From Chloroflexota bacterium (GTDB lineage Bacteria > Chloroflexota > Dehalococcoidia > Lucifugimonadales > UBA1127): 64,000 bases of DNA. Under the pieces are notes generated by a model. The model was not told the origin of the DNA. It made no database searches and saw only the letters and a program-made list of their open reading frames with translations. The DNA lies in contig JAPONS010000069.1 of assembly GCA_026713825.1 (NCBI GenBank), positions 26,082 to 90,081 of the forward strand, written 5' to 3'. Below, piece by piece: positions 3,857 to 55,130 of this stretch; positions within the stretch are counted from its first letter, which is position 1, and each line of letters opens with the position of its first letter. The translations under genes and the position numbers were made by a program.

Positions 3857-4008
3857 GCTAGGCTGAGACGGCACTCTCCAATTGGAGGTCAACTACGTTC
3901 CGGGGGGTTTGCCGGCGGACCAAATCAGATTGTGCCTGGAGCAAGCAGCCAGCTTTGTGGAAAGGGTGGAGGCGCTGCTGGAGGAGCAATAGCCGCGCGG
4001 CAAGCGCA

Positions 4009-4383
4009 ATGGCGATTGGAGGAATCCTGTTGGTCGAGACTCCATACAAGAATCAAAGCCGAGTCTTTCTCGCTCAGGCGGAAGATGAACTAGCACATGG
4101 CGACCTGTATCAGGCCGCCGAAAAGGGCTGGGGGGCGGCCGCACAGATCGTCAAGGCCATCGCAGACGCTCGCGGCTGGGAGCACGACAGCCACCGGCAC
4201 CTGTTCAACATTGTTCGCCGATTAGTGGACGAGACTGACGACGACTCACTCTCGGTGTTGTTCTCAGAGGCTAACCTGCTGCATGTCAATTTCTATGAGG
4301 GCGAGCTATCGTCGAGGCAGGCCGCCTACCACCTGTCGCATGTTGTTGAATTCGTGAACAAGGTGGAGGGGCAGTTGGAGTAG
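4009..4383 (+). CDS. PaREP1-like (HEPN-like helical) small protein inserted in the trp operon
   Basis: Pattern AEDELAHGDLYQAAEKGWGAAAQIVKAIA...LHVNFYEG resembles the PaREP1 family. GC is visibly lower than in the flanking trp genes. The start is uncertain: ATG 4009, or TTG 4030 after GGAGG. Confidence 0.45.
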   Translation: MAIGGILLVETPYKNQSRVFLAQAEDELAHGDLYQAAEKGWGAAAQIVKAIADARGWEHDSHRHLFNIVRRLVDETDDDSLSVLFSEANLLHVNFYEGELSSRQAAYHLSHVVEFVNKVEGQLE

Positions 4384-4412
4384 GGCTTTCAACCCCGACG
4401 TCCGAGTTTCCG

Positions 4413-5435
4413 TTGGAGTTGGTCATGATTCGAGAAGCCATTGGCGCATTGATCGAGGGGCGGTCGCTGTCCTCCGAGGAGGCGTCTGGCTGCATGGAAG
4501 AGATCATGTCAGGCACGGCGACGCCGGCGCAGATTGGCGCGTTTGTGACGGCGCTGCGGCTGAAGGGCGAGACCTCCGACGAGATCGCGGGGATGGCGCG
4601 CGTGATGCGGGCGAACGTGCTGCGCGTCAACGTGCCGGGGCCGGTGGTCGACGTGGTGGGCACGGGCGGCGATGGGCTCAACACCTTCAACATCTCGACG
4701 GCCGCGGCGCTGACGCTGGCGGCGTCGGGGGTGAAGGTGGCGAAGCACGGGAACCGCGCGGCGTCGAGCTCGGCGGGGGCTGCGGACGTGCTGGAGGCCT
4801 GCGGGGTCAAGCTGGAGCAGACGCCGGAGGGCGTCGCGCAATGCGTGGAGGAGGCGGGCATGGGGTTCATGTTCGCGCCCGCGTTCCATCCTGCCATGCG
4901 CCACGCGGCGGCGCCGCGCCGGGAACTCGGCATTCGCACGGTGTTCAACATTCTCGGACCGCTGACCAACCCGGCCTTCGCCGACGCACTGGTCGTCGGC
5001 ATCGCGGACCCGTCGTTCGGGCAGCGGATGGCGGAGGCGTTTCTGCAGCTTGGGACGACGCGGGCTATGGTGGTCCACGGCTCCGACGGCGCGGACGAAC
5101 TGACGCTGACCGGGCCGTCGCAGGTGTGGGAGGCGAAGGACGGCGCGGTGACCGCCTACGAGGTGCGTCCCGAGGACGTGGCGCTGGAGCCATGCTCGCC
5201 GGACGACCTTAAGGGCGGCGTCGCGGAGGAAAACGCGGAGACGATGCAACGGGTGCTGGGCGGCGAGCTTGGGCCGCTGCACCGGGCCGTCGCGCTGAGC
5301 GCGGGGGCGGGCATGCTGGTCGCGGGTACCGTACCGGACCTGAAGGAGGGCGTGGCAGCGGCGCGGCGGGTGCTTTCGAGCAAGGCGGCGCTGGAAACGC
5401 TGAGGAAGATGGCGGAGGTCAGCCAGAGCGCCTAG
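4413..5435 (+). CDS. trpD: anthranilate phosphoribosyltransferase
   Basis: Motifs VDVVGTGGDG, KHGNRAASS and NILGPLTNP. An alternative ATG start is at 4425. Confidence 0.93.
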   Translation: MELVMIREAIGALIEGRSLSSEEASGCMEEIMSGTATPAQIGAFVTALRLKGETSDEIAGMARVMRANVLRVNVPGPVVDVVGTGGDGLNTFNISTAAALTLAASGVKVAKHGNRAASSSAGAADVLEACGVKLEQTPEGVAQCVEEAGMGFMFAPAFHPAMRHAAAPRRELGIRTVFNILGPLTNPAFADALVVGIADPSFGQRMAEAFLQLGTTRAMVVHGSDGADELTLTGPSQVWEAKDGAVTAYEVRPEDVALEPCSPDDLKGGVAEENAETMQRVLGGELGPLHRAVALSAGAGMLVAGTVPDLKEGVAAARRVLSSKAALETLRKMAEVSQSA

Positions 5436-5455
5436 CGCCCGGGAGCATTGCAGGT

Positions 5456-6265
5456 ATGGCAACGATTCTGGACAAAATCGTCGAGGCGAAGCGGGAGTCG
5501 CTGGAGCGGGCCATGGCCGAGACGCCGCTGGCCGAGCTGGAGCGGCGCATGGCGGATGCGCCGGCGGCTGTGCCCTTCGCGGCGGCGCTGACGGGCGACG
5601 ACATCCGGCTCATCGCAGAGGTCAAGAAGGCGTCGCCGTCGGCCGGGCTGCTGCGGGCGGACTTCGACCCGGCGTGGCTGGCGTCGACGTACGCGGCGAG
5701 CGGCGCGGGCGCGGTCTCGTGCCTGACGGACGCGCACTTCGAGGGGACGCTGGAGCACCTGCAGCAGGTGAAGGACGCTGTAGCCGCGACCGGTGTGCCG
5801 GTGCTGCGCAAGGACTTCCTGACGCACCCGTACCAGCTCTACGAGGCGCGCGCCTATGGGGCCGACGCCGCACTGCTCATCGTGGCGGTGCTGTCGGCGG
5901 CGCAGCTCGGCGAGTTGCTGGGCGCGGCGCGGGAGGTGGGCATTCAGTGCCTCGTGGAGGTGCATGACGAAACTGAGATGGCTGTCGCGGCGGATGCTGG
6001 AGCGGAAGTCATCGGGATCAACAACCGCGACCTGCGCACGTTCAAGACGGACCTCGCCGTAACGGGGCGCCTCGCGTCGAAGGCGCCTTCAGGCGCGGCG
6101 CTGGTCAGTGAGAGCGGCATTCGCGACCGGGGGGACATGGAGCGGCTTCGCGACCTCGGAGCGCACGCGGCGCTGGTGGGCGAGGCCATCGTGACGCAGC
6201 CGGAGCCGGGGGCGAAGATCCGCGAGCTGCTCGGGGTTGCTGTCCCCGCGCAGGGGGCGTCATGA
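5456..6265 (+). CDS. trpC: indole-3-glycerol phosphate synthase
   Basis: Motifs ILDKIVEAKRE, IAEVKKASPS and GINNRDL. Confidence 0.93.
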   Translation: MATILDKIVEAKRESLERAMAETPLAELERRMADAPAAVPFAAALTGDDIRLIAEVKKASPSAGLLRADFDPAWLASTYAASGAGAVSCLTDAHFEGTLEHLQQVKDAVAATGVPVLRKDFLTHPYQLYEARAYGADAALLIVAVLSAAQLGELLGAAREVGIQCLVEVHDETEMAVAADAGAEVIGINNRDLRTFKTDLAVTGRLASKAPSGAALVSESGIRDRGDMERLRDLGAHAALVGEAIVTQPEPGAKIRELLGVAVPAQGAS

Positions 6266-6942
6266 GTATGACGGTGGTGAAGATCTGCGGACTGCGCGAC
6301 GTGGAGCACATGGCCGCGGCAGCGGAGGCGGGCGCGGACCTGGTGGGCCTGAACTTCCTGCCGACGGTGCGCCGCTACGTGCCGCCGGAAACGGGCGCCG
6401 CGCTGGCTTCGGCGTTTCGGGAGCAGCACCAGGGGCCGAGGCTTGTGGGACTCTTCGCGGACCAGCCCGTCGAGCACGTGAACGCCGTTGCCAAGCTGGT
6501 GGGGCTGGACCTTGTGCAGCTCTGCGGCAGCGAGGGGCCAGAGTACTGGGCGCGGGTGGAGCCATTGGTCATCAAGGTCGTGCACGTGCCCACGCCCGCA
6601 TCCGGGGATACCGACGACGAGTACGCGGCCGTGGAGACGGTGGAAGCGCGGTTGCACTCCATCAACGACGCGGGACACATGGCGCTGCTCGACCGGCAGT
6701 CGCCGGTGCAGCCGGGCGGGATGGGACTGACGTTCGACTGGAGCATCGCGCGGGAAATGGCCGCTCTCGGCCACCGGTTCATTCTCGCGGGGGGGCTGAC
6801 GCCGGAGAACGTCGGGGCGGCCATCGACGAGGTGGCGCCGTGGGGCGTTGACGTCTCGAGCGGCGTCGAGACCGAGGGGGTCAAGGACATCGCCAAGATT
6901 CGCCGCTTCGTGGCGGCGGCCAGACAAGGAGCCGCTCTATGA
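6262..6942 (+). CDS. trpF: phosphoribosylanthranilate isomerase
   Basis: VKICGL N-terminus and a GGL C-terminal motif. Overlaps trpC and trpB by 4 nt each. Confidence 0.9.
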
Positions 6943-8159
6943 CCAGCGAGCAACGGCTGCCCAACGAACAGGGGCGGTTCGGCGACTTCGGCGGGCGCTT
7001 TGTGCCGGAGACGCTGATGGCGGCGGTCGAGGACCTGCGCATCGGCTACGAGGAGGCGCGGGAAGACGCGGGCTTTCAGGCGGAGCTGACGGGGCTGCTG
7101 TCCACGTACGTCGGGAGGCCGACGCCGTTGACCTTCGCGGCCAACCTGACGGCGCACTTCGGCGGGGCGCGCATCTACCTGAAGCGCGAGGACCTGGCGC
7201 ACACGGGCGCGCACAAGATCAACCACGCGGTGGGGCAGGCGCTGCTGGCCAAGCGCATGGGCAAGCAGCGGATCATCGCGGAGACGGGCGCGGGACAGCA
7301 CGGCGTCGCAACGGCGACGGTGTGCGCGCTGCTGGGCATGGAGTGCGTGGTCTACATGGGCACGGAGGACATTCGGCGGCAGCAGCCGAACGTCTACCGG
7401 ATGAAGCTACTCGGCGCGCGGGTGGAGCCGGTCGACAGCGGGTCGCGGACGCTGAAGGACGCGATCAACGAGTGCATGCGGGACTGGGTCACCAACGTGC
7501 GCACCACCTTCTACCTGCTGGGGAGCGTCGTGGGGCCGCACCCGTACCCGATGATGGTGCGGGACTTCCAGAGCGTCGTGGGACGCGAGGCGCGGGCGCA
7601 GGTCATCGCCGCGGAGGGGCGGCTGCCCGACTACGCCGTCGCGTGCGTGGGCGGCGGGAGCAACGCCATCGGGCTCTTTCACCCCTTCATCGCGGACGAG
7701 GAGGTGGCGCTCGTGGGCGTCGAGGCCGGGGGGCTTGGGCTGGAGACGGGCAGGCACGCGGCGCCGCTCTCGGGGGGCAGGCCGGGCGTGCTGCACGGGT
7801 CGCACTCGTACCTGATGCAGGACGAGGCCGGGCAGGTGATGGAGACGCACAGCGTGTCGGCGGGCCTCGACTACCCGGGCGTCGGGCCGGAGCACTCGTA
7901 CCTGAAGGACATCGGACGGGCGACGTACGTCTCGGCGACGGACGACGAGGCGCTGGAGGCCTTCGGGCTGCTGTCGCGGACGGAGGGCATCATCCCGGCG
8001 CTGGAGCCGTCGCATGCGCTGGCATACGTGGCGAAGCTCGCGCCGCAGGCTGGGGCGGGCAAGGTCATCGTCGTGAACCTGAGCGGCCGCGGGGACAAGG
8101 ACCTGCAGGAGGTTATCCGCATCATGGACGAACGCGGCGGGCCGGAAGGAGCGGCGTGA
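6939..8159 (+). CDS. trpB: tryptophan synthase beta chain (TrpB1-type length)
   Basis: Motifs [24 protein letters not shown] (PLP lysine) and GGGSNAIG. Confidence 0.95.
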
Positions 8160-8347
8160 TGGTCATCGGCAAGGAGCGGACGAGCTGGTACAGCGACCAC
8201 CCGCTGGAGTGTACGTGCGCGCAGTGCGAGGCCCGGCGCGCCGACGACCGCCGTTTCCAGGACATGACGCAGGGCCGCAAGGTGGGCCGCAACGAGTCGT
8301 GCCCGTGCGGCAGCGGCAAGAAGTACAAACGCTGCCACGGGGGGTAG
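8159..8347 (+). CDS. small SEC-C motif (zinc-binding) protein
   Basis: 62-aa tail of ORF 6848..8347. It starts with an ATG that shares one base with the trpB TGA stop. The C-terminus CPCGSGKKYKRCHGG is the SecA-type metal-binding motif. Confidence 0.6.
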   Translation: MVIGKERTSWYSDHPLECTCAQCEARRADDRRFQDMTQGRKVGRNESCPCGSGKKYKRCHGG

Positions 8348-8412
8348 GGGGAGGGCTCCTTGTCCCGCCCTCACGCGGGCAGCTACAATGGAGTCACCCA
8401 CTCCACCCCTGG

Positions 8413-8697
8413 ATGGACGCCATGACGACTTACAGCATCCGCGAACTCAAGGCCAAGGCCGGGCAGATTCTCGACAGCCTCGCAGAGGGCGAGGAGGTCA
8501 TCATCACGCGCCGGGGGAAGCCGTGCGCGCGGTTGGCGCCCATCGCACCTGGGGCGGGAACCCCGTTGACGCCGCTGCAGAAGAAGTACGCCCACCTGCC
8601 CGACCTGTCACTTGAACAAATCCAACGCTTCAGGGCGGAAATGAACGACGCCTGGAAAGAGAAATTTGAGGACATCCCGGGCGACGATGCCAAGTAG
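8413..8697 (+). CDS. Phd/YefM-type antitoxin
   Basis: YSIRELKAKAGQILDSLAEGEEVIITRRGKPCARL is a typical Phd/YefM N-terminus. Overlaps the downstream PIN gene. Confidence 0.65.
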   Translation: MDAMTTYSIRELKAKAGQILDSLAEGEEVIITRRGKPCARLAPIAPGAGTPLTPLQKKYAHLPDLSLEQIQRFRAEMNDAWKEKFEDIPGDDAK

Positions 8698-9088
8698 TCC
8701 GCCGGTCTATGTGACCGACACCCACGCCCTGTGGTGGTATTTGAAGGCTGATGCCCGCCTTTCCGCCAATGCCGCAAGTGTCTTTCGTCAGGCTGCTGCG
8801 GGAGAAGCGACCATCATCGTTCCGGCCATAGTCGTGGCTGAGTTGTATTTCCTCTCAGTAAAGATGCGCGACCCCGTTGTGCCCGCTGAGTTTCTACTGG
8901 ATCTGACCGCATTTGGGATGATCTTGAAGGACACCGGCGGAGAGCAACTCGCATTGCTGGGCGCTTTCCCGGAAATCCCCGACATTCACGACAGGCTCAT
9001 CGCCGCTGAAGCCGTTGTGCATGAAGCCGTGCTGATCACGGTGGATCGCCTTCTAGCCGCGTCTCCAAACGTGGAGACCCTCTGGTAG
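8687..9088 (+). CDS. vapC: PIN-domain toxin (VapC family)
   Basis: VYVTDTHALWWYL (first acidic residue), DRLIAAEA and LITVD motifs. About 133 aa, with start MPSSPPV. Confidence 0.75.
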   Translation: MPSSPPVYVTDTHALWWYLKADARLSANAASVFRQAAAGEATIIVPAIVVAELYFLSVKMRDPVVPAEFLLDLTAFGMILKDTGGEQLALLGAFPEIPDIHDRLIAAEAVVHEAVLITVDRLLAASPNVETLW

Positions 9089-9097
9089 CATGGCGCC

Positions 9098-9943
9098 ATG
9101 ATCATTGACTCACACGTACACGTTTACCCGCCGTCGTTTCGCGAGCGGCGGGAGGAGATTGCGCGTCGCGACGCGACCTTCCGCGAGCTGTATTCGAACC
9201 CACAGGCCGTGCTGGCCAGTGTGGACGACCTGCTGGTTGCTATGGATGAGGCGGGCGTCGACGCGGCGGTGGCGGTGGGGATCGGGTGGACGGACCCCGG
9301 CGTTGCGCGGGAGGCGAACGACTACCTGGCGGAATGCGTGGCGCGAAGCGGCGGGCGGCTGCTGGCCTTCGGGTCGGTGAACCCCGCGTGGGGCGACGAC
9401 GCGCTTGCCGAGGTGGAGCGGTGCGCGGAGGCGGGGCTCGCGGGCGTCGGGGAGCTGCACCCGGACACGCAGGGGTTCAGCATCGACGACGTCTCGCTCA
9501 TGGGGCCGTTGATGGCGCTCGCGAGGCGGCTGGGGATGCCAGTGCTGACGCATGCGTCGGAGCCGGTGGGGCACAGCTACGCGGGCAAGGGCACGGTGAC
9601 GCCCGAGAAGGCGCTGCGGTTCATCGAGGCGTTTCCGGGGCAGCCGATTATCGCGGCGCACTGGGGCGGCGGGCTGCCGTTCTACGCGCTTATGCCGGAG
9701 GTCAAGGCGGCCCTCGCCGACGCCTACTTCGACTCGGCGGCGTCGCCGTTCCTGTACGCGCCGGACGTCTTTGCGAACGTTGCCCGAGCGCTCGGGGCGG
9801 AGCGGATGCTGTTCGGGACGGACTTCCCGCTCATCAAGCACGCCCGGCTGCTGGCGCAGGTGCGGGAGAGCGGACTGTCGGATGAGGAGCAGGCGCTTAT
9901 CCTGGGCGGGAACGCGGCCGGGCTCTTTGGGCTGGGCGGCTGA
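9098..9943 (+). CDS. amidohydrolase-family metal-dependent hydrolase
   Basis: MIIDSHVHVYPP metal-binding HxH motif, later THASEP and FGTDFP. TIM-barrel amidohydrolase pattern. Confidence 0.75.
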   Translation: MIIDSHVHVYPPSFRERREEIARRDATFRELYSNPQAVLASVDDLLVAMDEAGVDAAVAVGIGWTDPGVAREANDYLAECVARSGGRLLAFGSVNPAWGDDALAEVERCAEAGLAGVGELHPDTQGFSIDDVSLMGPLMALARRLGMPVLTHASEPVGHSYAGKGTVTPEKALRFIEAFPGQPIIAAHWGGGLPFYALMPEVKAALADAYFDSAASPFLYAPDVFANVARALGAERMLFGTDFPLIKHARLLAQVRESGLSDEEQALILGGNAAGLFGLGG

Positions 9944-9948
9944 CGGCG

Positions 9949-10482
9949 ATGGAGACGCTGCCCGACTACCTGCGGCCGGGGCTCGACATCGTGCTGGTGG
10001 GGCTGAACCCGTCGATACCCTCGGCGCAGACGGGGCGCTACTTCGCGAACCCGCGGAACCGATTCTGGCGCGCCTTCAACGCGGCGGGGCTCACGCCGGA
10101 ATCGCTGGGGCCCGAGACGGACCATCGGATGCTCGACTTCGGCATCGGCATGACGGACGTGGTAAAGCGGCCGACGCCGGGGGCGGGCGCGCTGACGGCG
10201 GCGGACTTTCGCGCGGGGGCGGCCGAGCTTCGCGAGCGGCTGCTGGGGGCGTCGCCGCGCATCGTCAGCTTCCACGGCGTAATGGCGGCGTCGCAGTACC
10301 GGCGGCACGGCGACGGGAGCCGGGAGCGGGTGGCGCTGGGACTGCAGGAGTGGCGCATCGGAGAGTCAGTCGTCTTTGTGACGCCCAACCCAAGCCCGGC
10401 CAACGCCAGCTTCAGCCTGGAGGACCTGACCGCGTGGTACGCGCGGCTGAGGGAGTTGCGTGACCAGCTCAAACCGGCCTGA
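9949..10482 (+). CDS. mug: G/U mismatch-specific DNA glycosylase (UDG family 2)
   Basis: VGLNPSIPSAQTGRYFANPRNRFW closely parallels the E. coli Mug active-site region. Confidence 0.85.
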   Translation: METLPDYLRPGLDIVLVGLNPSIPSAQTGRYFANPRNRFWRAFNAAGLTPESLGPETDHRMLDFGIGMTDVVKRPTPGAGALTAADFRAGAAELRERLLGASPRIVSFHGVMAASQYRRHGDGSRERVALGLQEWRIGESVVFVTPNPSPANASFSLEDLTAWYARLRELRDQLKPA

Positions 10483-11068
10483 GCAGCTCCGGCTCTTCGT
10501 GGCGGTGGCGCTGCCGCCCGAGGTGCGGGAGGTTCTCGCGAGGGCGATCGGCAGGCTCCGCGACGCCGATCTTCGGGGCGTGCGCACCGTTGCGCCGGAG
10601 GGCGTGCACGTCACGCTGAAGTTTCTGGGGAATGTGGACACCGGCCTCGTGCCGTCACTTTCCGAGGCGTTGACCGCTGGGGGCGAGGGCGTCGCGCCAT
10701 TCGAGCTCGCGTTGCAGGGCGTTGGCGCGTTCCCGGACGAGCGCGCGCCGCGGGCGCTGTGGGCGGGGATAGCGGGCGACACCGAGTCCCTCGCGGGGCT
10801 TGCGCGGCGTGTGGACGAGGCGTGCGCGACGCTGGGGTTCGCGCGGGAGCGACGCGCGTTCACGCCGCACCTCACCATCGCGCGGCTGCGCGACAGCGCA
10901 ACTGTCAACGACCGGGACCGCGCGGCACAGGCGCTGGCCGCTATTCGTGCCGACGTGGACGGCAGGTTCACGGTCGACGCGCTGCACCTGATCAAGAGCA
11001 CGCTTTCCCAAACCGGGCCCACCTACCAGACGCTGCACACAGTCCATCTCCGCCAAAGAGTAGGGTAG
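10460..11068 (+). CDS. thpR: RNA 2',3'-cyclic phosphodiesterase (2H phosphoesterase)
   Basis: Two HxT/S motifs: HVTLKFLG and HLTIAR. Confidence 0.85.
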   Translation: MTSSNRPEQLRLFVAVALPPEVREVLARAIGRLRDADLRGVRTVAPEGVHVTLKFLGNVDTGLVPSLSEALTAGGEGVAPFELALQGVGAFPDERAPRALWAGIAGDTESLAGLARRVDEACATLGFARERRAFTPHLTIARLRDSATVNDRDRAAQALAAIRADVDGRFTVDALHLIKSTLSQTGPTYQTLHTVHLRQRVG

Positions 11069-11209
11069 GCCGCCGGCGAGTTACCCCGTGTTACCGGAGC
11101 ACTTTTCCGTCGGCCCCCTCCAAACCGGATGTGCGGCTTTCACCGCATTCGGCTCTCCAGTGTCGTTACAGAGTCGTAGTGCCTAGGGTTGTGGTGGTAT
11201 TTGTAAGAG

Positions 11210-11690
11210 TCAGTAGACAATGCTTAGCAGTGCAGTCCACGACTCGAAGGGTTGGTTGTCTGCCGGAACAGTGACCTCTGTGACCTGACCGGGTGCGAGG
11301 TCATGTGCGTCCTGAGGGTCAAGGGTGGTGCCGTGTTCTCCGCGCCAGACTATGGTCGAAACTTCGATCGCGTACAGCGTGTTATCCGTGGTGTTCTCAA
11401 TGGTGCCTTTGAAGGCGTTTACGGCCTTGTCATAAGACAGAACCAAACGTACCCCGTGTTCTGTCCTGTCATAGGTAGCGAAGGGGGTGTTGTTATTACC
11501 GTACCGTAGGGGCAGGGGGGGGGAGCTTGGCGTACTCTGTGGCTATCATGGCCATGTCTTGGTTCCACCTTTCGGAGCTCTCTGGACGGTCACGGTCTGA
11601 CCGGCTATCACAGCCGACGAAAGTGAGTGTGAGGCCAAGCATCACGAGGAGGGTGCCGATTGTAACCAGTTGTTGACTAGGTCGCTGCAC
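11210..11690 (-). pseudogene. lipoprotein gene split by a frameshift at a homopolymer tract (or phase-variable)
   Basis: ORF 11496..11690 encodes only a signal peptide with lipobox LTFVGC plus about 40 aa. The frame of ORF 11210..11446 stays open up to 11542, through the C9 tract. Losing one base in the tract fuses the two frames. Confidence 0.45.
11515..11523. repeat. G9/C9 homopolymer tract
   Basis: Nine consecutive G on the plus strand, read directly from the sequence. Confidence 0.95.
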
Positions 11691-12006
11691 GCTTGCCTCC
11701 TGAATTGTGGGGGACGGAGCGTGTTGATTCTACCACCGTTGGGACACTACCAACTAAGTTGTGGGCGCGGTTGCCAGTTGCCTCCGTGGACGTTCAAGTG
11801 GCAGGGACGGCAGACCACGAGGGGCCTGCGCCGTCGCCGCCACCCACCTCATCCAGAGCACGCTCACGCCTTCGGGCGCGCGGTACGAAACGTTGCACAG
11901 CGTACGCCTCCGGCAGAAGGCCGGGTAAAACGGGGCGACGGGCGACTGCGTCCCGCAGCGCCCGGAGCGTGGTATGCTCGATACATGGACGCTATGAGCT
12001 TGCGGG

Positions 12007-12918
12007 GTGACTCCATTGGCAGCGCACGAGGGTAGGTCGCTGGGCATACCGGGCGGCAGGCGGGTGGGACTCGCGATGCTTGGCGGCGGCGCGCTGCTCC
12101 TGGCGGTCGCGGGCGGCTTCTTCGGCTACCAGGCCTACATCGACGAGCGATACGAGCCGGTGGTGGTCATCACCACGGAGCCGACGCTGCCCTCTCAGGA
12201 GGAACTGCAGCAACTGATCACGCCGCCGACCGATGTGCCCGCAGTTCCCGCGCAGACTCAGCCGGTCACCACCACGCCGCTGCAAGACACCGGCCCCGCA
12301 CCCTCCGCCGCAACCCTCGGCGAGGTCTATGGGGGCTGGGACGCGGCCCCGCAGGACTGGACAAATCCCCTCTGGGCCAAGGAGCGGGGCGCGCCGGAGT
12401 TCACGTCGGGATTTCTGCCGGTCTCGGAGCTGGACCTGCCGGAGTCGGGGCTGGCGCCGGCCACCCTCGTCCGCATCCCCGTCATCGGGCTCGAATCCAG
12501 GACGATCGAGCTTGGCATCCTCACGACGGACGAGGGGCACCTCAAATACGAATCGCCGATCTACGAGGTCGGCATCATCCCGGGGCACACCACTCCCGGC
12601 GAGCTGGGCAACACCTGGCTGTTCGGGCACCTGGAGAGCCCGCTCAAGGACGAGGGCGCCGTCTTCCGCGACCTTCCCAAGCTCCATGACTACCTTCGAT
12701 CCGGCGAGCCGGTCTACGTCATCGTCGACAGCGACGACGGCAGCTTCCTGTACCAGGCCACGGAGTTCCGCATCCTCCCCAAGGAGCAGGTGAACTTCTG
12801 GGGCTCCGACGGCCGCACCGCGACGCTGGTCTGCTCATGGCCGCGGTTCATCTACGACGAGCGGGTGGTGGTGACGGCGGAGCTGGTGGGGGCGCGGCTG
12901 AAGCGGCCACTTTCTTGA
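12007..12918 (+). CDS. sortase-like membrane-anchored transpeptidase (tentative)
   Basis: N-terminal TM segment, then GHTTPGELGNTWLFGHL, GEPVYV and ATLVCSWP. These are reminiscent of the sortase His, beta-strand and TLxTC Cys motifs. Confidence 0.45.
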   Translation: MTPLAAHEGRSLGIPGGRRVGLAMLGGGALLLAVAGGFFGYQAYIDERYEPVVVITTEPTLPSQEELQQLITPPTDVPAVPAQTQPVTTTPLQDTGPAPSAATLGEVYGGWDAAPQDWTNPLWAKERGAPEFTSGFLPVSELDLPESGLAPATLVRIPVIGLESRTIELGILTTDEGHLKYESPIYEVGIIPGHTTPGELGNTWLFGHLESPLKDEGAVFRDLPKLHDYLRSGEPVYVIVDSDDGSFLYQATEFRILPKEQVNFWGSDGRTATLVCSWPRFIYDERVVVTAELVGARLKRPLS

Positions 12919-16512: not shown

Positions 16513-16830
16513 TCAGGCGGGAGTCGGAGCAGGAGCTTCAAATTCCACATCCACCATGCCGAACGTGGTTTCCACGGCCTGGTCTCCCTCTCCGGCGGCC
16601 AAAAGCTCCGCGCTGTGGTAGGCCATCGCCTCACAGAGCGACATGCCTGGCTCCGGGATGGGTTCCCCTTTCTCGGCCAAGCCCTGAAAGTGAAAGGCCA
16701 GCGCCTCTCTGATCATCACCTGCATCTCGTCCCATGTGCTGGCCGTGGCGATGCAGCCGGGAACGTCGGGCGCATAGGCGGCATAGTTGTTGGGAGAACG
16801 CTCGAACACTACCGCATAGCTGCGCTTCAT
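16513..16830 (-). CDS. hicB: HicB-family antitoxin
   Basis: YAVVFERSPNNYAAYAPDVPGCIATASTWDEMQVMIREALAFHFQGL is a typical HicB N-terminal domain. Confidence 0.8.
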   Translation of the reverse strand: MKRSYAVVFERSPNNYAAYAPDVPGCIATASTWDEMQVMIREALAFHFQGLAEKGEPIPEPGMSLCEAMAYHSAELLAAGEGDQAVETTFGMVDVEFEAPAPTPA

Positions 16831-20290: not shown

Positions 20291-20351
20291 CATGCTTCGC
20301 AGGAATGACGATGAGGGGTTAGGCCTTCGCGCTGGGCTGGCGACGGGGCTG

Positions 20352-43058: not shown

Positions 43059-43067
43059 GGGGACGGC

Positions 43068-43970: not shown

Positions 43971-43998
43971 CCCCCGAGAAAACCATAGGGAGAACAAC

Positions 43999-46033: not shown

Positions 46034-46627
46034 GTGGGCGCGGAAGACGTCACCATCACGGAGGGTCTCGCGGCCGAGCACGTCGAGGACGCGCTGCGGA
46101 TACTGTTCGGGGCCTTCGCGAAGAAGCTGCACATCGGGTTCCGCGACGCCGACGACTTCGTCCGGCTGTTCCGCGACGGCGTCAACCCGGCGGCCTGCCT
46201 CTCGGCCACCGCGTCCGGCGAGTTGCTCGGCATCCTGGGGCTCCAATCGCCCGGCGGGGAGCTCTACGATTTCCGGCCCAAGTCCCTGTTCCTGCGCTTC
46301 TCGCCGTGGCGAGCCGTCCTCATCCTCGCCAACATGCTCGTCCTGTACTCGCCGCCGCGGAAGGACGCGCTGGTCGTTGACCAGCTTGCCGTTGCGCCGT
46401 CAGCACGCGGCAGGGGCATCGGCACGCTGCTGCTGGAGGCGGCGGAGACGAGGGGGCGCGCGATGGGGATGCCAAAGATGGCCCTCAGCGTAATCTCGGA
46501 GAACGAGGGCGCCATCCGCCTGTACGAGCGCATGGGGTACGTGCGGACGCAGGCAATCGGAGGCACGCTGGTGCGCATGGTGGCCAGGTCGGCGGAGGTG
46601 TGGCACATGGAGAAGGAGCTGGGGTGA
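46034..46627 (+). CDS. GNAT family N-acetyltransferase
   Basis: QLAVAPSARGRGIGTLLL acetyl-CoA motif and C-terminal NEGAIRLYERMGY. Confidence 0.8.
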   Translation: MGAEDVTITEGLAAEHVEDALRILFGAFAKKLHIGFRDADDFVRLFRDGVNPAACLSATASGELLGILGLQSPGGELYDFRPKSLFLRFSPWRAVLILANMLVLYSPPRKDALVVDQLAVAPSARGRGIGTLLLEAAETRGRAMGMPKMALSVISENEGAIRLYERMGYVRTQAIGGTLVRMVARSAEVWHMEKELG

Positions 46628-46654
46628 TGCCAACCCTGACCGTCATCCGCCGTG
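46627..46654 (+). repeat. distal copy of the comF 5' end (ATG plus 8 codons), left boundary of cassette
   Basis: ATGCCAACCCTGACCGTCATCCGCCGTG here versus ATGCCAACCCTGACCGCCATCCGCCGCG at 47591-47618 (26 of 28 identical). Its ATG overlaps the GNAT TGA stop. Confidence 0.9.
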
Positions 46655-46765
46655 AAGGTGCTGTGCGCTTGATTGGCCGATGAATTACAGTTCGACGGTA
46701 TGATATACTTGCCGTAAACAAGCTGTGAATTGGCCCTTGATGGCTCACCCAACCGGAGGGAATTT

Positions 46766-47011
46766 GTGAGTGAGGCGCTCCAAGAGGAATTCCAGAACTA
46801 CCTCGCCTACCAGGCTGATTTCGTGGCTAAGTACGACGGACGCTTCATCGCGCTGAAAGATGGCGTGGTGCTTGGCGACTACGATAGCGCGGGCGAGGCG
46901 ATGCTTGACCTACGTGACACCCACCCAATTGGCACATACCTCATCCAGAGAGTGTCCCCGGGCGACAAGGACACGAAAGTTTCAATCTATTCTCCTGTGG
47001 TGGCCCCATAG
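46766..47011 (+). CDS. small hypothetical protein (DUF5678-like pattern, tentative)
   Basis: YDGRFIALKDGVVLGDYDSAGEAM resembles short proteins of the G-x-(W/F)-(V/I)-A-x-x-D-G-x-V type. GTG 46766 after GGAGGG; the ORF track start is 46730. Confidence 0.4.
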   Translation: MSEALQEEFQNYLAYQADFVAKYDGRFIALKDGVVLGDYDSAGEAMLDLRDTHPIGTYLIQRVSPGDKDTKVSIYSPVVAP

Positions 47012-47040: not shown

Positions 47041-47499
47041 GTGGAAGGCGATGACCTTCTTAACGTCTTGACGACGCAATGCGGCGTCTCTGCGTACACT
47101 CCTAGCTTGTACACGACCCCGTCTGCAATGCCCGACTTCACCGCCCTCTGGGATACCGGAGCCACCATCTGCATGGTGTCTCAAGCGATCGTCGACGCCT
47201 GCGGATTGGTGGAGGTTGGGGCTACAGACGTCAGCCATGCAATGGGCACATCCCAGCAAGTTGCGCTCTACTACATCAGCCTTCGTTTGCCCAGTGGCGC
47301 CGTGATCGATGAGGTCCGGGCCATCAAGGGCATCTTGCCGGAGGACCTGCATATGGTCATTGGCATGAATGTCATAAACGAGGGTGACTTTGTCATCACC
47401 AATCGGAACGGAAGGACTAAGTTTTCCTTTCGCGTGCCCTCGCAAGCCGACATAGACTTTGTGACAGAGGATGCAGCTACAGGCGGTACGCCAACCTAA
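47041..47499 (+). CDS. retropepsin-like (clan AA) aspartic protease
   Basis: ALWDTGATICMVS contains the D-T-G-A catalytic motif. The later VIGMNVINEGDFVI matches the retropepsin flap/dimer pattern. 152 aa. Confidence 0.6.
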   Translation: MEGDDLLNVLTTQCGVSAYTPSLYTTPSAMPDFTALWDTGATICMVSQAIVDACGLVEVGATDVSHAMGTSQQVALYYISLRLPSGAVIDEVRAIKGILPEDLHMVIGMNVINEGDFVITNRNGRTKFSFRVPSQADIDFVTEDAATGGTPT

Positions 47500-47590
47500 A
47501 GAAGATGTTACCCAGCATTGTGAGCCTGTCGGATTCTATGAGTTCTATCTCGCTGGATTCGGCCTCTCCAATGCTACAATTCCTCCCACC

Positions 47591-47618
47591 ATGCCAACCC
47601 TGACCGCCATCCGCCGCG
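47591..47618 (+). repeat. proximal copy of the comF 5' end (functional start of comF)
   Basis: See the feature at 46627-46654. Preceded by the extended -10-like TGCTACAAT. Confidence 0.9.
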
Positions 47619-51693: not shown

Positions 51694-52854
51694 CTAGTCC
51701 TGACCGGACGCTTCGCCTTCATCGGGCGCGTCCTCATGCAGGACGGGCGCCCCCGCCGCGTCCAGCAGCGGCGCATCGGCCTGCGACGCGGCATTCCACT
51801 GGCGGCAGAAGTAGACGATGAGATCGCGGCCCAGGGCGGTCAGCGGCGGGCCGAGGATGACGCCCCACAGCCCGAAGAAGTGGCTGCCGATGGTGATCAC
51901 AAGGATGACGGCGATGGGGTGCAGGTTCAGCGTCTCGGCCTGGATGCGCGGCACCAGCAGGGTGTTTTCCAGGAGCTGGACAGCCAAGTAGAGCAGGATG
52001 ACCCAGACGACCTTGTCCGGCTCCGTCGCGAGGGTCACGAGGACGCCGACTCCGCCGCCAATCCACGGGCCGATGATGGGCACCAGCTCGGTGAGGCCCG
52101 CGACGACGCCCAGCACCACGGCAAACGGGACGTCCAGCGCCAGCAGCCCAATGGTCACGATGGCCCCAACCACCACGCCGAGGGTGAGCTGCCCCCGGAT
52201 GTAGCCGCCCAGCGTGCGGTCCGCCATGTCGATCAGGTCGCGCAGGTAGGGGTGCATGGAGGCGGGAAAGGGGGCGCGCAAGGACTGCACAATGACCCCG
52301 CCGTCCTTCATCAGGTAGAAGACCAGCACGGGGGCGGTCGCCAGTGCAAGGATGAAGGCAAAGGAGCCGGTGATGATGCCCAGGGTCTGCTCGACCACGC
52401 TCCAGGCAGCGCTGCCGACGATGTCCCCCACATTCGCCAGCGCCTCCTCGATCTGGTCCCGCGCATCCTGGGAGATGACGTCAACGTATTCTTCGACCCA
52501 TCCCTCGATCGTCACGCGGGCGCCCTGGAGGAACTCGGGGAAGCCCTCGGCGAACTGCCGCCCCTGGTCGACTGTCGGGGGGATGACGGCGAGGAAGACA
52601 CTCACGAGGACCGCCAGGGCCGCGAGGAAGATGATCCCGACGGCGGAGGTCCGCGCGAGGCCCGGGCGGCCGTGCCGCCAGGGCAGCCGCCGCTCGATGA
52701 ACCGGGCCACCGGCAGCAGCACGTAGGCGATGACGATGCTGATGCCCAGCGGCAGCAGCACCGACCCCAGCACGTACACCAACGCCAGCGCCAGCAGCAG
52801 CACGGCGGCAAACGCCGCCAGGTGCGCGCGTTCCCGTGACAGGTGAAATGGCAT
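51694..52854 (-). CDS. AI-2E family transporter (PerM/UPF0118)
   Basis: From the internal Met MPFHLS. Eight hydrophobic segments and an ELVPIIGPWIGG motif. Confidence 0.85.
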   Translation of the reverse strand: MPFHLSRERAHLAAFAAVLLLALALVYVLGSVLLPLGISIVIAYVLLPVARFIERRLPWRHGRPGLARTSAVGIIFLAALAVLVSVFLAVIPPTVDQGRQFAEGFPEFLQGARVTIEGWVEEYVDVISQDARDQIEEALANVGDIVGSAAWSVVEQTLGIITGSFAFILALATAPVLVFYLMKDGGVIVQSLRAPFPASMHPYLRDLIDMADRTLGGYIRGQLTLGVVVGAIVTIGLLALDVPFAVVLGVVAGLTELVPIIGPWIGGGVGVLVTLATEPDKVVWVILLYLAVQLLENTLLVPRIQAETLNLHPIAVILVITIGSHFFGLWGVILGPPLTALGRDLIVYFCRQWNAASQADAPLLDAAGAPVLHEDAPDEGEASGQD

Positions 52855-52948
52855 GGCTGGCTCCCTATCCTCGCATCGTTGGGGTTCGGGCAGGCACAGG
52901 GTACCCGATTGCAGGGGCGTTGTGGTGAGGGTAGGCTGGAGTCGCGTT
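52839..52948. repeat. direct repeat copy A: first 5 codons plus about 95 bp upstream of the AI-2E transporter gene
   Basis: ACAGGTGAAATGGCATGGCTGGCTCCCTATCCTCGCATCGTTGGGGTTCGGGCAGGCACAGGGTACCCGATTGCAGGGGCGTTGTGGTGAGGG aligns with 53970-54072. Confidence 0.85.
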
Positions 52949-53129
52949 GCATTGTACGCCGAGGGCGCGACAGGTCCAGAGACTCTCACGAGGGGTTTTG
53001 CGGTTGTCACGCGGACCTGCTCTCAATGCAATCGGAGACCGCCGAGGTTTCTTGCGTTATAATCACTAACTCACTACAATATTCCTGACGCCCCCTTTCC
53101 AGAGCAACCCGAGACGAAGGAGACGCGAC

Positions 53130-53534
53130 ATGGTCGTAGACCGCCAGGACAAGTATCGAGCAATGGTGGTCCGGGGCAAGTACCAGAGGCTGTACACGTA
53201 CCTGAGCAGTCTTCAGGCCCAGGAGTGGAGGACCTCCTTCAACGAGGTCGAGGCGGTCATCGGATTCGAGCTGCCTCCGTCCGCACGGCTGCACCGGCCC
53301 TGGTGGGGAAATCAGAGGGGCGGCAGCGGCCACAGCCACGCCCTCGCCTGGAGCGTCGCCGGATGGGAGGCGGCGGAGGTGGATATGGAAGCCGAGACGC
53401 TGCTGTTCCGGCGAACGGATCCCAAGCCGGTACCCAGGCTTCCCCTTGACGAAGCATGGCCCGTCCATCCCACCGCGGTGTGGCCGGAAAGCTTGAGTCT
53501 CAGGAGAGAGGACCTCTACGAGGGGAGGGGTTAG
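53130..53534 (+). CDS. putative non-canonical antitoxin partner of VapC
   Basis: The motif FNEVEAVIGFELPPSARLHRPWWGN...AGWEAAEVDMEAETLLFRR recurs in small proteins from mobile contexts. The C-terminal tail is SLSLRREDLYEGRG. The gene ends 7 nt before the PIN gene. Confidence 0.45.
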   Translation: MVVDRQDKYRAMVVRGKYQRLYTYLSSLQAQEWRTSFNEVEAVIGFELPPSARLHRPWWGNQRGGSGHSHALAWSVAGWEAAEVDMEAETLLFRRTDPKPVPRLPLDEAWPVHPTAVWPESLSLRREDLYEGRG

Positions 53535-53541
53535 GCCAGCC

Positions 53542-53964
53542 ATGTTCATAGACACCAACGTGCTGGTAAAGTCTCGTGTCCCCGGCGCGCCGGACCACAA
53601 CGCGGCCAGGGCGAGCCTGGAACGCGCTTTTCGAGACCCTGAACCGCTCAGGATCAGTCGCCAGGTGATACGCGAGTACCTGTCGGTGGTCACGCGCCCG
53701 CAGACGTGGCCGGTGGCTATCACTCGCGAGGAAGCTCTCGACGACGTGAGCAGGCTGATTGGCAGCTTCGAGATACTTGAAGACGGCCCCGTGGTGACCG
53801 AGCTGCTGGTGGCCCTGTGCCGAGAGGTTCCCGCAGGGGGGCAGCAGATTCACGACGCCAACATCGTTGCGACCATGCTCGCGCGTGGAGAGCGCAGGCT
53901 CCTCACGTTCAACACAGCAGACTTTCGGCGTTACGGAGACCGCATAGAGTTGGTGGGAGGCTAG
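53542..53964 (+). CDS. vapC: PIN-domain toxin (VapC family)
   Basis: MFIDTNVLV, REYLSV, IHDANIVATM and LLTFNTADF. All four acidic/PIN signature positions are recognisable. Confidence 0.8.
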   Translation: MFIDTNVLVKSRVPGAPDHNAARASLERAFRDPEPLRISRQVIREYLSVVTRPQTWPVAITREEALDDVSRLIGSFEILEDGPVVTELLVALCREVPAGGQQIHDANIVATMLARGERRLLTFNTADFRRYGDRIELVGG

Positions 53965-53969
53965 CGAGC

Positions 53970-54072
53970 ACAGGTTGAATGGCATCGCTCCCTATCCTCG
54001 CATGGTTGCCGTTCGGGCAGGGGACAGAGTACCCGTTTGCGGGGGCATTGTGGTGGGGGGCCTGAGCGCTTG
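53970..54072. repeat. direct repeat copy B (diverged pseudo-5' end of the AI-2E transporter gene)
   Basis: ACAGGTTGAATGGCATCGCTCCCTATCCTCGCATGGTTGCCGTTCGGGCAGGGGACAGAGTACCCGTTTGCGGGGGCATTGTGGTGGGGGG. On the minus strand it begins ATGCCATTCAACCTG (MPFNL), against MPFHL in the real gene. Confidence 0.85.
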
Positions 54073-54322
54073 ACAACGATCTGTGGTCTGGCTACTTTCT
54101 GGCAGGATTGAAGCCGATAACGGGCGCTTGACACAGGCGGAGAAGGCAAAGACGCTACCACATGCCCCTTTTGTGACACACCCGTTGTCTGCGTGTGCGT
54201 AACGCCACAGCAGGCTGCACCTGCCTAAGTCACGTAACGCTCAGGCAGTCAGCACTATCGGACTGGCACAGGCAACTAGAGAGACTGAATGCCGCTGGGC
54301 ATCCCAGTCCGACGCCCCTTCA

Positions 54323-54697
54323 TTGGGGCGTTTCAGGGGAAGGAGATGGTCTTTGGCAGAAGAACTCTGGCGCACTGACAACCCTTGCACAGGCACACAG
54401 AGTTATTTGCACGACACAAACTGGGGTTCCCACACACGGAAGAGGCCGGAGATCAGAGGTCGTTTGCGGGAGGTCCAAGAAACCGTAAAGGACCCGGATT
54501 TTGCGCTCCGTGACGAGCAGGGAGTAGTATTCAAGTACCGAATGGGCTTCGGACAAGGCAAGCTGGCAAGGCTCTGGCTTCTCGTCATTGAGGAAGCGGA
54601 CCAGCGAGGAGCCCACTACGTCAAGAGCGCCTACTTCACGTCCGACATAAGGGACTACGAGGCCCTCTGCATTAGAAGGATACCGGCGATTGGGTGA
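54323..54697 (+). CDS. hypothetical small protein, possible toxin partner of the downstream DUF2283-like gene (start uncertain)
   Basis: The C-terminal half ...VQETVKDPDFALRDEQGVVFKYRMG...RLWLLVIEEADQRGAHYVKSAYFT fits the pattern of small RelE-fold or DUF4258-like toxins. Overlaps the next gene by 8 nt. Confidence 0.3.
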   Translation: MGRFRGRRWSLAEELWRTDNPCTGTQSYLHDTNWGSHTRKRPEIRGRLREVQETVKDPDFALRDEQGVVFKYRMGFGQGKLARLWLLVIEEADQRGAHYVKSAYFTSDIRDYEALCIRRIPAIG

Positions 54698-55130
54698 CGA
54701 CATGAGCATGGAGCATGCGTTTGACAGGCTGAAGAAGTCTGCAAAGGACGACGCGGAGGCATTGGCCGCCCGCTTCCTGCAAGTGAATGCGGACATGACG
54801 GGCATGATCGAGCGCGCGGGCATCCTCATCGAGTATGAGCGCGAGCGTGACCACCTCTACATGACACTGGGCGAGCCGCGTGAGGGAATGGCGCTCACCG
54901 TGGGCCATCTGGTTGTCCTTGCTGACCCGGAGACGTTGGAGTTCATCGGCTTTGAGATCCCCGACTTCAAGAAGGCAGTCGAGACCGATGCCCTCAAGGA
55001 GTGGGCGCGCATCTTGCCCTTCATCGAATGGCAGCCAGTCGTGCACATTCCGCCCGCAGCACACAACGACGAGGTGACATTTCCTCGGGAAATCGCCGAG
55101 GGAGTACAGCGAGAGTTGGTCCACGTCTAG
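54690..55130 (+). CDS. DUF2283-like protein (possible antitoxin)
   Basis: IEYERERDHLYMTLGEPREGMALTVGHLVVLADPETLEFIGFEI matches the DUF2283 pattern YD.e.D.LYI.l...e...v..D....ivGiEI. Confidence 0.4.
   Translation: MGDDMSMEHAFDRLKKSAKDDAEALAARFLQVNADMTGMIERAGILIEYERERDHLYMTLGEPREGMALTVGHLVVLADPETLEFIGFEIPDFKKAVETDALKEWARILPFIEWQPVVHIPPAAHNDEVTFPREIAEGVQRELVHV

Follow-up and report, generated by a model that had tools for sequence, protein, structure and literature searches.

Small variable islets and duplicated gene ends between conserved genes of a sponge-associated Dehalococcoidia genome

A 64,000-nucleotide stretch of DNA from an uncultured Chloroflexota bacterium (GenBank assembly GCA_026713825.1, contig JAPONS010000069.1, positions 26,082 to 90,081), hereafter the window, carries six small modules of accessory genes, designated M1 to M6, in the gaps between housekeeping genes. 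The module-bearing gaps look like ordinary variable intervals, and the duplicated gene ends detected at three places in the window look like scars of normal recombination. Probably, islets in such hotspots are turned over by homologous recombination in the flanking genes and, on rare occasions, bear the scars of single-crossover integration or of homology-facilitated illegitimate recombination (HFIR), a dedicated recombinase being unnecessary. The window would thus provide a natural example, in an uncultured sponge symbiont, of tiny defence or toxin–antitoxin (TA) islets that turn over between conserved genes without mobile-element machinery, with three recombination scars to record the route of entry. 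An original prediction, made from the letters of the window alone, had offered two explanations for the modules: a recombination system that targets translation start regions, and the homologous exchange of 'pre-loaded alleles'. It is the second of these that is favoured by the finding that the same slots hold different cargo or nothing at all, with edges that coincide with gene ends.

Variable contents of the slots

The window has a G+C content of 69% and its genes are densely packed. When its AI-2E transporter was used as a query against species-representative genomes, the nearest kin proved to be uncultured Dehalococcoidia/Chloroflexota metagenome-assembled genomes (MAGs), and two complete chromosomes are among the kin: OX638292.1 (locus L002; 88% amino acid identity for the AI-2E transporter) and OZ220679.1 (L005). 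L002 is the closest relative of the window, with 91–94% nucleotide identity. Positions 53022–55459 of the window are matched with 99.96% identity by MKWU01042220, a 2.4-kb contig from a metagenome of the sponge Aplysina aerophoba; the MKWU assembly derives from Slaby et al. 2017 (PMC5649159), in which TA and restriction–modification (RM) systems are reported to be enriched in sponge symbionts. The source of the window is a compact, strongly syntenic genome of a sponge-associated member of the Dehalococcoidia (Chloroflexota). The comparison set consisted of 15 related Dehalococcoidia loci, located through homologues of the AI-2E transporter, trpD and comF and through the retropepsin-like protein of M4. 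These relatives are uncultured MAGs of different species or genera rather than strains of one species, and their flanking genes are 75–98% identical to those of the window.

The features under discussion are collected in Table 1. Each module coincides with a dip in G+C, to 0.53–0.63 against a background of ~0.69–0.72, in agreement with the low G+C that the original prediction had ascribed to the modules. The names it had given to the host genes are likewise upheld by homologue, Pfam and Rfam matches, the identified hosts being trpD, Amidohydro_2, SBP_bac_5, NTP_transferase (galU-like), a ComF-type gene and the AI-2E transporter gene. Five of its six module labels are backed by Pfam (PaREP1; Phd/PIN; ParE/RHH; the retropepsin-like pair; DUF7662/PIN), but the 'DUF2283-like' label of the sixth finds no match: the M6 open reading frames (ORFs) belong to no Pfam, NCBIfam or PADLOC family. 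Rfam matches in the window comprise the thiamine pyrophosphate (TPP) riboswitch, the signal recognition particle (SRP) RNA, tRNA-Asn and domains V/VI of a group II intron.

Table 1. Positions and supporting matches of the modules, repeats and further accessory genes in the window
Feature	Position	Strand	Evidence or context
M1, PaREP1-family gene	Probable gene 4030–4383 (ORF 3955–4383)	+	Pfam PF05942, 73.7 bits
M2, Phd-type antitoxin gene and PIN/VapC toxin gene	8422–8697 and 8687–9088	+	Pfam
Functional LigT 3' end, left repeat copy	10973–11067	+	Last ~65 nt foreign-type
Inserted segment, LigT/sortase slot	11069–11832	−	Rfam RF00029; two small ORFs
Orphan native LigT 3' end, right repeat copy	11833–11927	+	Followed by native spacer, then sortase gene
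HicB-like antitoxin gene	16513–16830	−	Pfam PF15919, E 1e-10; convergent slot ileS/NYN-domain gene
SoFic-type Fic gene	26069–27232	+	Pfam Fic/Fic_N; PADLOC SoFic, E 8e-119; between RidA-like and mutS2 3' ends
M3, ParE-type toxin gene and RHH antitoxin gene	41559–41813 and 41791–42054	−	Pfam
M4, 81-aa ORF and 123-aa retropepsin-like gene	46766–47011 and 47128–47499	+	Pfam gag-asp_proteas, 26.3 bits, just under the cut-off
Native comF promoter-proximal region (AATGCTACAATTCCTCCCACC) and true start (47591)	47567–47616	+	Identical in L002 despite other cargo
AI-2E promoter, 5' untranslated region (UTR) and first 16 coding nt (5 codons), copy 1	52839–52931	−	Contiguous with AI-2E gene
M5, promoter/operator, DUF7662 gene (53130–53534) and PIN gene (53542–53964)	53051–53964	+	Pfam
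AI-2E promoter, 5' UTR and 5 codons, orphan copy 2	53970–54059	−	Starts 5 nt past PIN stop codon
M6, two overlapping ORFs (~114 and 142–146 aa)	54353–55130	+	Upstream of thi promoter and TPP riboswitch (55198–55310)

A comparison of presence and absence at the module junctions across these loci, of the kind proposed in the original prediction, revealed that all six slots are polymorphic: each is empty in some relative and most are found in further states, and the same applies to three more slots. Between close relatives, whose flanks are 91–98% identical, whole slots are replaced and the edges of the replacements fall at the ends of the neighbouring genes.

M1 lies inside the trp operon, between trpG (stop at 3861) and trpD (start at 4425; 336 aa according to its homologues). 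PaREP1 genes occupy the same slot in the window, L008 (9611–9970), L009, L011 (9608–9967) and L012, with amino acid identities of 50–62% between flanks that are 88–92% identical. The similarity among them does not track that of the flanks, and the low identity would be consistent with either fast divergence in place or allele replacement. In L013, L014 and L015 the slot is empty and measures 29 bp, and in L010 it is filled by an array of 4.5 tandem copies of a ~100-bp unit (9472–9957), a duplicate of the trpG 3' end being part of that unit. The same repeat family, containing CACCCTGAGCTTGTCGAAGGG, is also present at six other intergenic sites of L010 and was not found in the window. At the beginning of the window, positions 410–700 (+) resemble a T-box leader upstream of trpS–trpE (RF00230; 47.7 bits, short of the gathering score, which is 93; a local search gave E 1.5e-9). 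The last ~60 nt of this leader (638–700) are 92–95% identical in L013 and L015, both of which lack trpS and have the leader immediately before trpE; trpS (738–1793) therefore looks inserted in the lineage of the window.

M2, which has a promoter-like site of its own (TTGTCC-N18-TACAAT, ~8360–8390), is bordered by a SEC-C motif gene (8159–8347) and the amidohydrolase gene (9098). This slot is empty in L008 (48 bp) and accommodates a glyoxalase gene, with or without a five-gene ABC cluster, in L013 and L015. In L010 the position of M2 is taken by an IS110-family transposase (14229–15178; DEDD_Tnp_IS110 and Transposase_20, two called ORFs) and a further ORF. The divergent slot that separates the SRP RNA/rsmA region from galU houses M3 and also the gene for a solute-binding protein (SBP; 39569 to ~41400), an accessory gene missing in L017 and L018. 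The slot of L016 holds the SBP gene and an RHH gene but keeps a mere ~100 nt of the toxin region, in which no toxin gene is called; that of L017 holds an RHH gene and a 307-aa gene, the toxin being absent; that of L018 is empty and spans 80 bp.

M4 occupies the slot between FMN_dh and comF, and loci retrieved with its retropepsin-like protein harbour it upstream of comF only. An extended −10-like box, TGATATACT, precedes the module at ~46702–46710; homologues of the retropepsin-like protein are also 123 aa long, and a family search for the small ORF returned no match. The slot is remarkably varied in content: a GNAT gene and M4 in the window and L061, M4 in L060, M4 and an endonuclease/phosphatase gene in L004, the latter gene alone in L017, a GNAT gene and an RCC1-type lipoprotein gene in L002 and L016, and an empty 10 bp in L018. 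When the window is aligned with L002, homology breaks at the GNAT stop codon and again 24 nt before the comF ATG.

The slot between the AI-2E gene and the thi operon carries both M5 and M6 in the window. M5 is present in the same slot in L001, L003 and L018, the contig of L003 ending after it; a 764-aa gene takes its place in L002 and a mere 97 bp separates the flanks in L005. M6 appears in L017, together with no M5, as a pseudogenised first ORF and a second ORF with 40% identity, and in L018 as the second ORF only (79% identity), the slot of L018 consisting of M5, a 101-aa ORF and this second M6 ORF. Both M6 ORFs are missing from L005 and L002. Between the window and L002 the variable segment starts 12 nt ahead of the AI-2E ATG and reaches as far as the thi −35 box; coding identity in the AI-2E gene stays at ~90% right up to the start, and its profile along the gene discloses no imported tract longer than ~100 nt. 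Two further intervals display the same behaviour: the LigT/sortase slot contains 0.76 kb in the window, small ORFs or 112 bp (L008) in relatives, and a 3.2-kb DUF488/RM island (59800–63037) is absent in L002 and L005.

An alternative to turnover would make the modules vertical residents, inserted once in an ancestor of the clade and then diverged or lost by lineage, with the duplications being unrelated products of slippage, small templated insertions or tandem duplication. This is unlikely, although a number of observations suit it. Single slots retain their module across lineages diverged by ~10–25% at the nucleotide level (M1 at five loci; M4 in the window, L004, L060 and L061; M6 in the window, L017 and L018; M3 in the window, L016 and L017), the PaREP1 identities fit fast divergence in place, the local tandem duplication of L010 includes a gene end (trpG 3'), and L061 and L018 harbour M4 and M5, respectively, without duplications. 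Against these stands the comparison of the window with L002, in which two slots have been fully recargoed with sharp edges, a result that needs replacement beyond loss.

Placement of the modules and host promoters

The modules had been described as sitting exactly at the 5' ends of their hosts, a theme for which no bias emerges once chance is considered. Core genes were curated, which yielded 47 core–core junctions (36 co-directional, 5 divergent and 6 convergent), and a core 5' end is present at 41 of these (87%); with such a frequency, the placement of six modules out of six at 5' ends has P ~0.44. The occupied slots of the window number 11 rather than six, and two of the 11 are 3'–3', against ~1.4 expected by chance. 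The slots of the HicB-like gene and of the SoFic gene are counter-examples to the 5'-end theme. Directly upstream of the SoFic gene is a 180-nt imperfect palindrome (25879–26058) with repeated TAAACGCAGCGTT motifs, which may be an operator region. Relatives provide two additional placements at odds with the theme: L002 has an 867-bp insertion with two ORFs in the convergent thiQ/DUF488 slot, and in L017 the mutL 5' end and the AI-2E 3' end are separated by a Gp49/HigB-type pair. The reading of the L002 insert as a ParE-like pair was dropped, as Pfam gave no match and the insert offers only two small ORFs.

The median length of unoccupied spacers is 23 nt, with quartiles of −1 and 49, so that any insert between genes lies within tens of bases of a start codon, and the modules seem to abut host starts because the empty spacers are only ~10–100 bp. 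In addition, some host genes have a −10 box 6–10 nt before the ATG. Location next to a start codon should be treated with caution and not be read as targeting where spacers are ~20 nt long and some −10 boxes sit right before the ATG. The further claim that modules invade the first codons of their hosts proved to be an artefact of choosing the longest ORF: homologues place the trpD start at 4425 and the comF start at 47591 (comF homologues being 214 aa), alignment supports the AI-2E start at 52854, and with these true starts the modules stay outside the first codons.

The idea that a module donates a promoter to its host is not supported for comF and the amidohydrolase gene, the two testable hosts. 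The ATGCTAnnAT box 9–10 nt before the comF ATG is retained with four different cargos, among them RCC1-type, endonuclease/phosphatase and M4 genes, the 24 nt concerned are identical in L002, which lacks M4, and equivalent TAnnAT boxes are found in L004, L016, L017 and L060. At the amidohydrolase gene, a TAAAGT box placed 6 nt ahead of the ATG is kept in the empty site of L008 and also in L013 and L015. At galU, at least 50 nt upstream of the gene are conserved in L016, L060 and L061. Judging from their spacing, the comF and amidohydrolase boxes look like host promoters of the leaderless or short-leader type. The first 24 nt of comF (ATGCCAACCCTGACCGCCATCCGC; 47591–47614) are almost invariant in L004, L017, L018 and L060, even at synonymous sites, in genomes whose coding sequences differ by ~20%, which hints at a regulatory site or at some constraint acting on the 5' end of the mRNA.

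These results bear on the proposal that a trans-acting site-specific or programmable recombinase, encoded elsewhere, puts cassettes at start or promoter regions, duplicates the target and delivers a promoter. In its favour, an IS110-family transposase in the M2 slot of a relative indicates that such enzymes exist in the clade, and duplicated 5' regions of the host lie on either side of two modules, the orphan copy ending 5–9 codons into the gene. The proposal is nonetheless hardly credible, given that 87% of slots have a 5' end anyway, that two of the 11 occupied slots are 3'–3', that a relative has a two-ORF insert in such a 3'–3' slot, that one of the duplications concerns a 3' end and that the −10 boxes checked, at comF and the amidohydrolase gene, belong to the hosts.

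Duplicated gene ends and routes of entry

Three duplications in the window share one anatomy, an orphan gene-end fragment followed by cargo and a complete gene end, the end being 5' in two cases and 3' in one. At comF, AI-2E and LigT the repeats measure 26, 94 and ~95 nt and are 96, 82 and 67% similar, respectively. The two 5' duplications, comF (25/26) and AI-2E (94 nt, 82%), had been recognized in the original prediction and are confirmed; the LigT repeat is new. A self-comparison of the whole window detected the AI-2E repeat only, the comF and LigT repeats having come to light through targeted searches and the sequence of a relative. Duplicated host ends were also searched for at M1, M2, M3, M6, the HicB, Fic and GyrI genes and the RM island, and none was found.

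At comF, nucleotides 1–26 of the gene (47591–47616) are repeated at 46627–46652 (+), and the ATG of the orphan copy overlaps the stop codon of the upstream GNAT gene (TGATG). L061 exhibits the same GNAT–M4–comF order with the orphan fragment absent.

The AI-2E gene (51694–52854, minus strand) has its start at 52854, with the N-terminal sequence MPFHL, according to the alignment with relatives, and the two copies of its leader flank M5 (82% identity over 94 nt, E 6e-16). Copy 1 adjoins M5, and its distal part is closer to the leader of L018, which adjoins M5 as well; copy 2 adjoins M6, as the single leader of L017 does. Both copies differ in type from the leader common to L002, L003 and L005, a circumstance that speaks against vertical residence, and leader type is at odds with relatedness. 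In L018, M5 sits in the AI-2E slot and the leader duplication is absent. Together with the L061 arrangement of M4, this implies that the duplications are not an obligatory signature of the modules.

The duplicated LigT 3' end (67% identity over 96 nt, E 3.5e-8) came to notice when the LigT end of L008 gave two alignments with the window. In the functional gene the last ~65 nt are 70% identical to L008, as opposed to ~85% for the rest of the gene. The orphan copy matches the LigT 3' end of L008 at ~88% over ~83 nt up to the stop codon, as counted from the alignment, and the orphan end plus spacer is 76% identical over the whole 224-nt alignment. The functional copy is native-like through the block CACCTGATCAAGAGCACGCT and foreign-like beyond it; the orphan copy has a variant of the block and is native beyond. 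A functional end of foreign type paired with an orphan of native type indicates that DNA was imported, which again conflicts with vertical residence, and a single crossover within the CACCTGATCAAGAGCACGCT block would give rise to such reciprocal hybrids. The insert between the two copies encodes two small ORFs (11210–11446 and 11496–11690), the second with a lipoprotein-like signal. At 11060–11157, on the minus strand, it overlaps a match to domains V/VI of a group II intron (52.4 bits, the gathering score being 40), with a 3' end that extends 8 nt into the LigT ORF. These two domains are all that could be recognized of the ribozyme, no reverse-transcriptase ORF accompanies them, and the match is probably a fragment. 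A complete ORF-less group II intron of 967 nt, from GUGCG at 12027 to 11061, was considered and rejected: positions 11833–12027 are the native LigT end and spacer, homologous to L008.

The following sequence of events is proposed. Spacers between core genes would act as hotspot slots in which small modules of TA or defence type, with promoters of their own, gather, swap and vanish. Judging by the polymorphism of the slots, turnover would be sustained mainly by homologous recombination in the shared flanking core genes, which would exchange whole-slot 'alleles'. Occasionally, a fragment made up of a module and a short piece of a neighbouring gene would be captured, either by circularisation and a single crossover or through a pair of junctions, one of them homologous and the other illegitimate (HFIR). 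Either route would leave a partial direct duplication, composed of an orphan fragment and a complete functional end, as the anatomy of the three duplications suggests. The identity of the donor, the circular intermediate and DNA uptake are parts of this route that we infer. The repeats that survive would be short or diverged because long ones would recombine and delete the module. Donor-like arrangements are seen in L018 and L003 for M5 and in L004 and L060 for M4; these loci, the reciprocal LigT hybrids and the resemblances of the AI-2E leaders appear to support the single-crossover/HFIR model, the comF repeat being too short to display a hybrid pattern. DNA uptake would be in keeping with the ComF-type gene of the window and the TfoX_N gene of L013.

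Several points weigh against this account. The 26-nt homology at comF is at the lower limit for a RecA-dependent crossover, and in view of the L061 arrangement a separate small templated event, independent of the arrival of M4, may have produced the comF duplication. Both 5' orphans end 5–9 codons from the start, which is somewhat unexpected if fragment ends are random and for which survivorship is the sole explanation offered. Exchange by flanking homology fails to explain the occurrence of M5 in at least nine non-syntenic contexts, described below. Moreover, M1, M4 and M6 may be old vertical residents with lineage-specific loss.

The repeats are unequal in length and similarity, and searches disclosed neither an identical att core nor a motif common to the boundaries of different modules; no inverted repeat longer than 9 nt was found at any module boundary. 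Together with the lack of a 5' bias, the LigT 3' duplication and the presence of the same modules in the same slots with the duplication absent (M4 in L061 and L060, M5 in L018), these features count against the start-targeting recombination system that had been envisaged.

They also bear on a reading of the modules as degraded integrative elements, such as a prophage, an integrative and conjugative element (ICE) or integrative mobilizable element (IME), a transposon or cargo borne by a group II intron, from which the recombinase and one end have been deleted, with the duplications as old attL/attR sites. Integrases that target gene ends and carry replacement ends are well known, the LigT repeats with their conserved block of 20 nt formally recall attL/attR, and the insert between them contains a group II intron fragment. 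Such an origin is quite improbable all the same. The inserts are only 0.5–1 kb, the repeats have no identical core, and no larger element was seen at the M4 or M5 slots in any relative examined. The statement that the window is devoid of integrases and transposases holds for the module ORFs tested against Pfam, NCBIfam and PADLOC, in which no such domain was found, but needs to be amended by the trace of group II intron domains V/VI at 11060–11157. The same databases uncovered no remnant of a recombinase, transposase or phage gene in the window slots tested; traces of mobile elements amount to the intron fragment in the LigT slot and the IS110 transposase in the M2 slot of L010.

A further variant of the preferred, recombination-based account would treat the conserved gene ends themselves, such as the opening 24 nt of comF, the leader of AI-2E and the block at the end of LigT, as de facto attachment sites. 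Promoter-to-stop cassettes bearing a copy of such an end would circularise, integrate there by a RecA-dependent single crossover and, being flanked by repeats from then on, be able to pop out again. It is improbable: three scars are seen and no circles. If true, homology-anchored cassettes would offer selfish modules a general route between related genomes that needs no enzyme of their own, of wider interest for the pangenome dynamics of host-associated communities, and their mobility would be self-sustaining among co-resident sponge symbionts.

M5 in other contexts and relation to known systems

M5 is the module with the widest distribution. Metagenome contigs scanned with DUF7662 supplied 41 loci, and the DUF7662–PIN pair is encoded on 12 of these contigs (L020–L029, L031 and L032) in at least nine distinct contexts, with DUF7662 44–86% and PIN 59–93% identical and host genomes of 56–70% G+C. 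No AI-2E, thiB or mutL gene was found within 6 kb of the module on any of the 12 contigs. Across contexts homology begins at the promoter/operator and ends at the PIN stop codon, and nothing is conserved outside. These sharp limits in at least nine contexts mark M5 as a minimal, horizontally mobile unit, and its occurrence in unrelated contexts is a further argument against vertical residence. A start-targeting recombinase could be credited with boundaries so sharp in the absence of a linked recombinase, yet nothing beyond the genes and their promoter is conserved. Elsewhere M5 adjoins insertion sequence (IS) elements or Ku/LigD/HNH/terminase-like genes, as degraded elements might; against such an origin, no relatives of M4 or M5 were found in the viral contigs of IMG/VR. 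By default, the entry of M5 at new sites would be put down to illegitimate recombination or to carriage on elements beyond this sample.

The promoter/operator of M5 (~53051–53110) runs from CTTGCGT to TCACTAACTCACTACAAT. In the window, L003, L018 and L020–L032, the −35-like box CTTGCGT and the −10-like box TACAAT enclose two to four direct ACTAACT/ACTCACT repeats; these repeats likely form an autoregulatory operator, and DUF7662 may be a DNA-binding antitoxin partner of the PIN toxin. In L024 the PIN gene of the pair is split by a 1.6-kb insertion (6546–8120) that encodes a 549-aa protein and looks like an IS element; a second copy of the 549-aa protein begins at 11473.

The phenomenon as a whole belongs to known kinds, namely hotspots or islets free of mobile genetic elements (MGEs), single-crossover/HFIR scars and chromosomal TA cassettes. 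Many hotspots of horizontal gene transfer are devoid of mobile elements, and their diversification proceeds by double homologous recombination in the core genes on either side (Oliveira et al., PMC5635113). As in these MGE-free hotspots, the same core intervals hold varied accessory genes or none, no integrase or transposase was found in the slots, edges fall at core gene ends and the cargo is of defence or TA type; unlike them, the slots of the window are tiny (0.5–3 kb, one to four genes), many (11 in 64 kb) and in one case located inside an operon (trpG/trpD).

In Escherichia coli, the single-crossover integration of recircularised fragments generates duplications of 109–950 bp of the homologous locus (Amarir-Bouhram et al. 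2011, PMC3240628), and in HFIR one homologous and one illegitimate end are joined (PMC3240628). The window shares with these processes inserts of ~1 kb, partial direct duplications at the flanks and one homologous plus one novel joint, and the duplications obtained by experiment are of a comparable size, ~100 bp and more. It departs from the experiments in that its events are natural and ancient, and its repeats are diverged (67–96%), one of them only 26 nt long; moreover, classic HFIR yields an insertion with a deletion, whereas the window displays duplication. The names of de Vries and Wackernagel in 2002, and of Prudhomme in the same year, are reportedly linked to single-crossover integration and HFIR.

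Displaced modules leave orphan gene ends at type VI secretion (T6SS) and Rhs loci of Vibrio cholerae (Kirchberger 2017, PMC5361080). The window resembles T6SS effector–immunity, Rhs and contact-dependent inhibition (CDI) loci in that an incoming module carries a conserved gene end and the old end is shifted aside as an orphan. In those loci the anchor lies within the toxin gene and the arrays grow directionally, whereas the anchors of the window are unrelated housekeeping genes and involve both 5' and 3' ends.

Chromosomal type II TA modules are said, after Makarova in 2009, to behave as minimal horizontally mobile units. Two-gene cassettes with an autoregulated look (PIN, ParE, Phd, RHH, HicB) are dispersed among the housekeeping genes of the window in similar fashion, and from their sequence M2 (Phd and PIN) and M3 (RHH and ParE) have the architecture of type II TA modules. 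For M5, the PIN gene, DUF7662 and the repeat-containing promoter make the assignment plausible, DUF7662 not being an established antitoxin; M1, M4 and M6 fall short of type II TA status on present evidence. DUF7662 as a partner of PIN, the retropepsin-like pair, PaREP1 and the M6 pair set the window apart from established TA families.

Some integrative elements restore the gene end that they target, as exemplified by tRNA 3' ends and, for SXT/R391, the 5' end of prfC. In the window, too, the target keeps a complete end and an orphan or hybrid end is located on the other side; end-targeting elements, however, bring an integrase gene and share an identical att core, and the window slots yielded neither of the two. 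The modules are unlike transposons, miniature inverted-repeat transposable elements (MITEs) or mobile insertion cassettes in having no terminal inverted repeats at their boundaries, and unlike integron cassette arrays in having their own promoters and mixed orientations.

A few observations concern other parts of the window. The large slot at 18725–20351 contains two ORFs (19089–19885), for which family searches gave no match, and a single copy of a GC-rich palindromic element (20190–20330; GGGCGATTCGCGAATCGCCCC ... GGATTCCTGCCCCCGTATCGGGGTACGGGGCATGC) that resembles repetitive extragenic palindromic (REP) sequences. The GyrI-like gene (36419–36922) matches the Pfam family Cass2, described as 'integron-associated effector binding protein'. 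Two tandem gene pairs are present: the members of one (20340–21229 and 21244–22182) are 76% identical and its first copy, without a clean full-length ORF, may be decaying; the other (43050–43963 and 43979–44894) consists of NAD_binding_2 dehydrogenase paralogues that are 82% identical.

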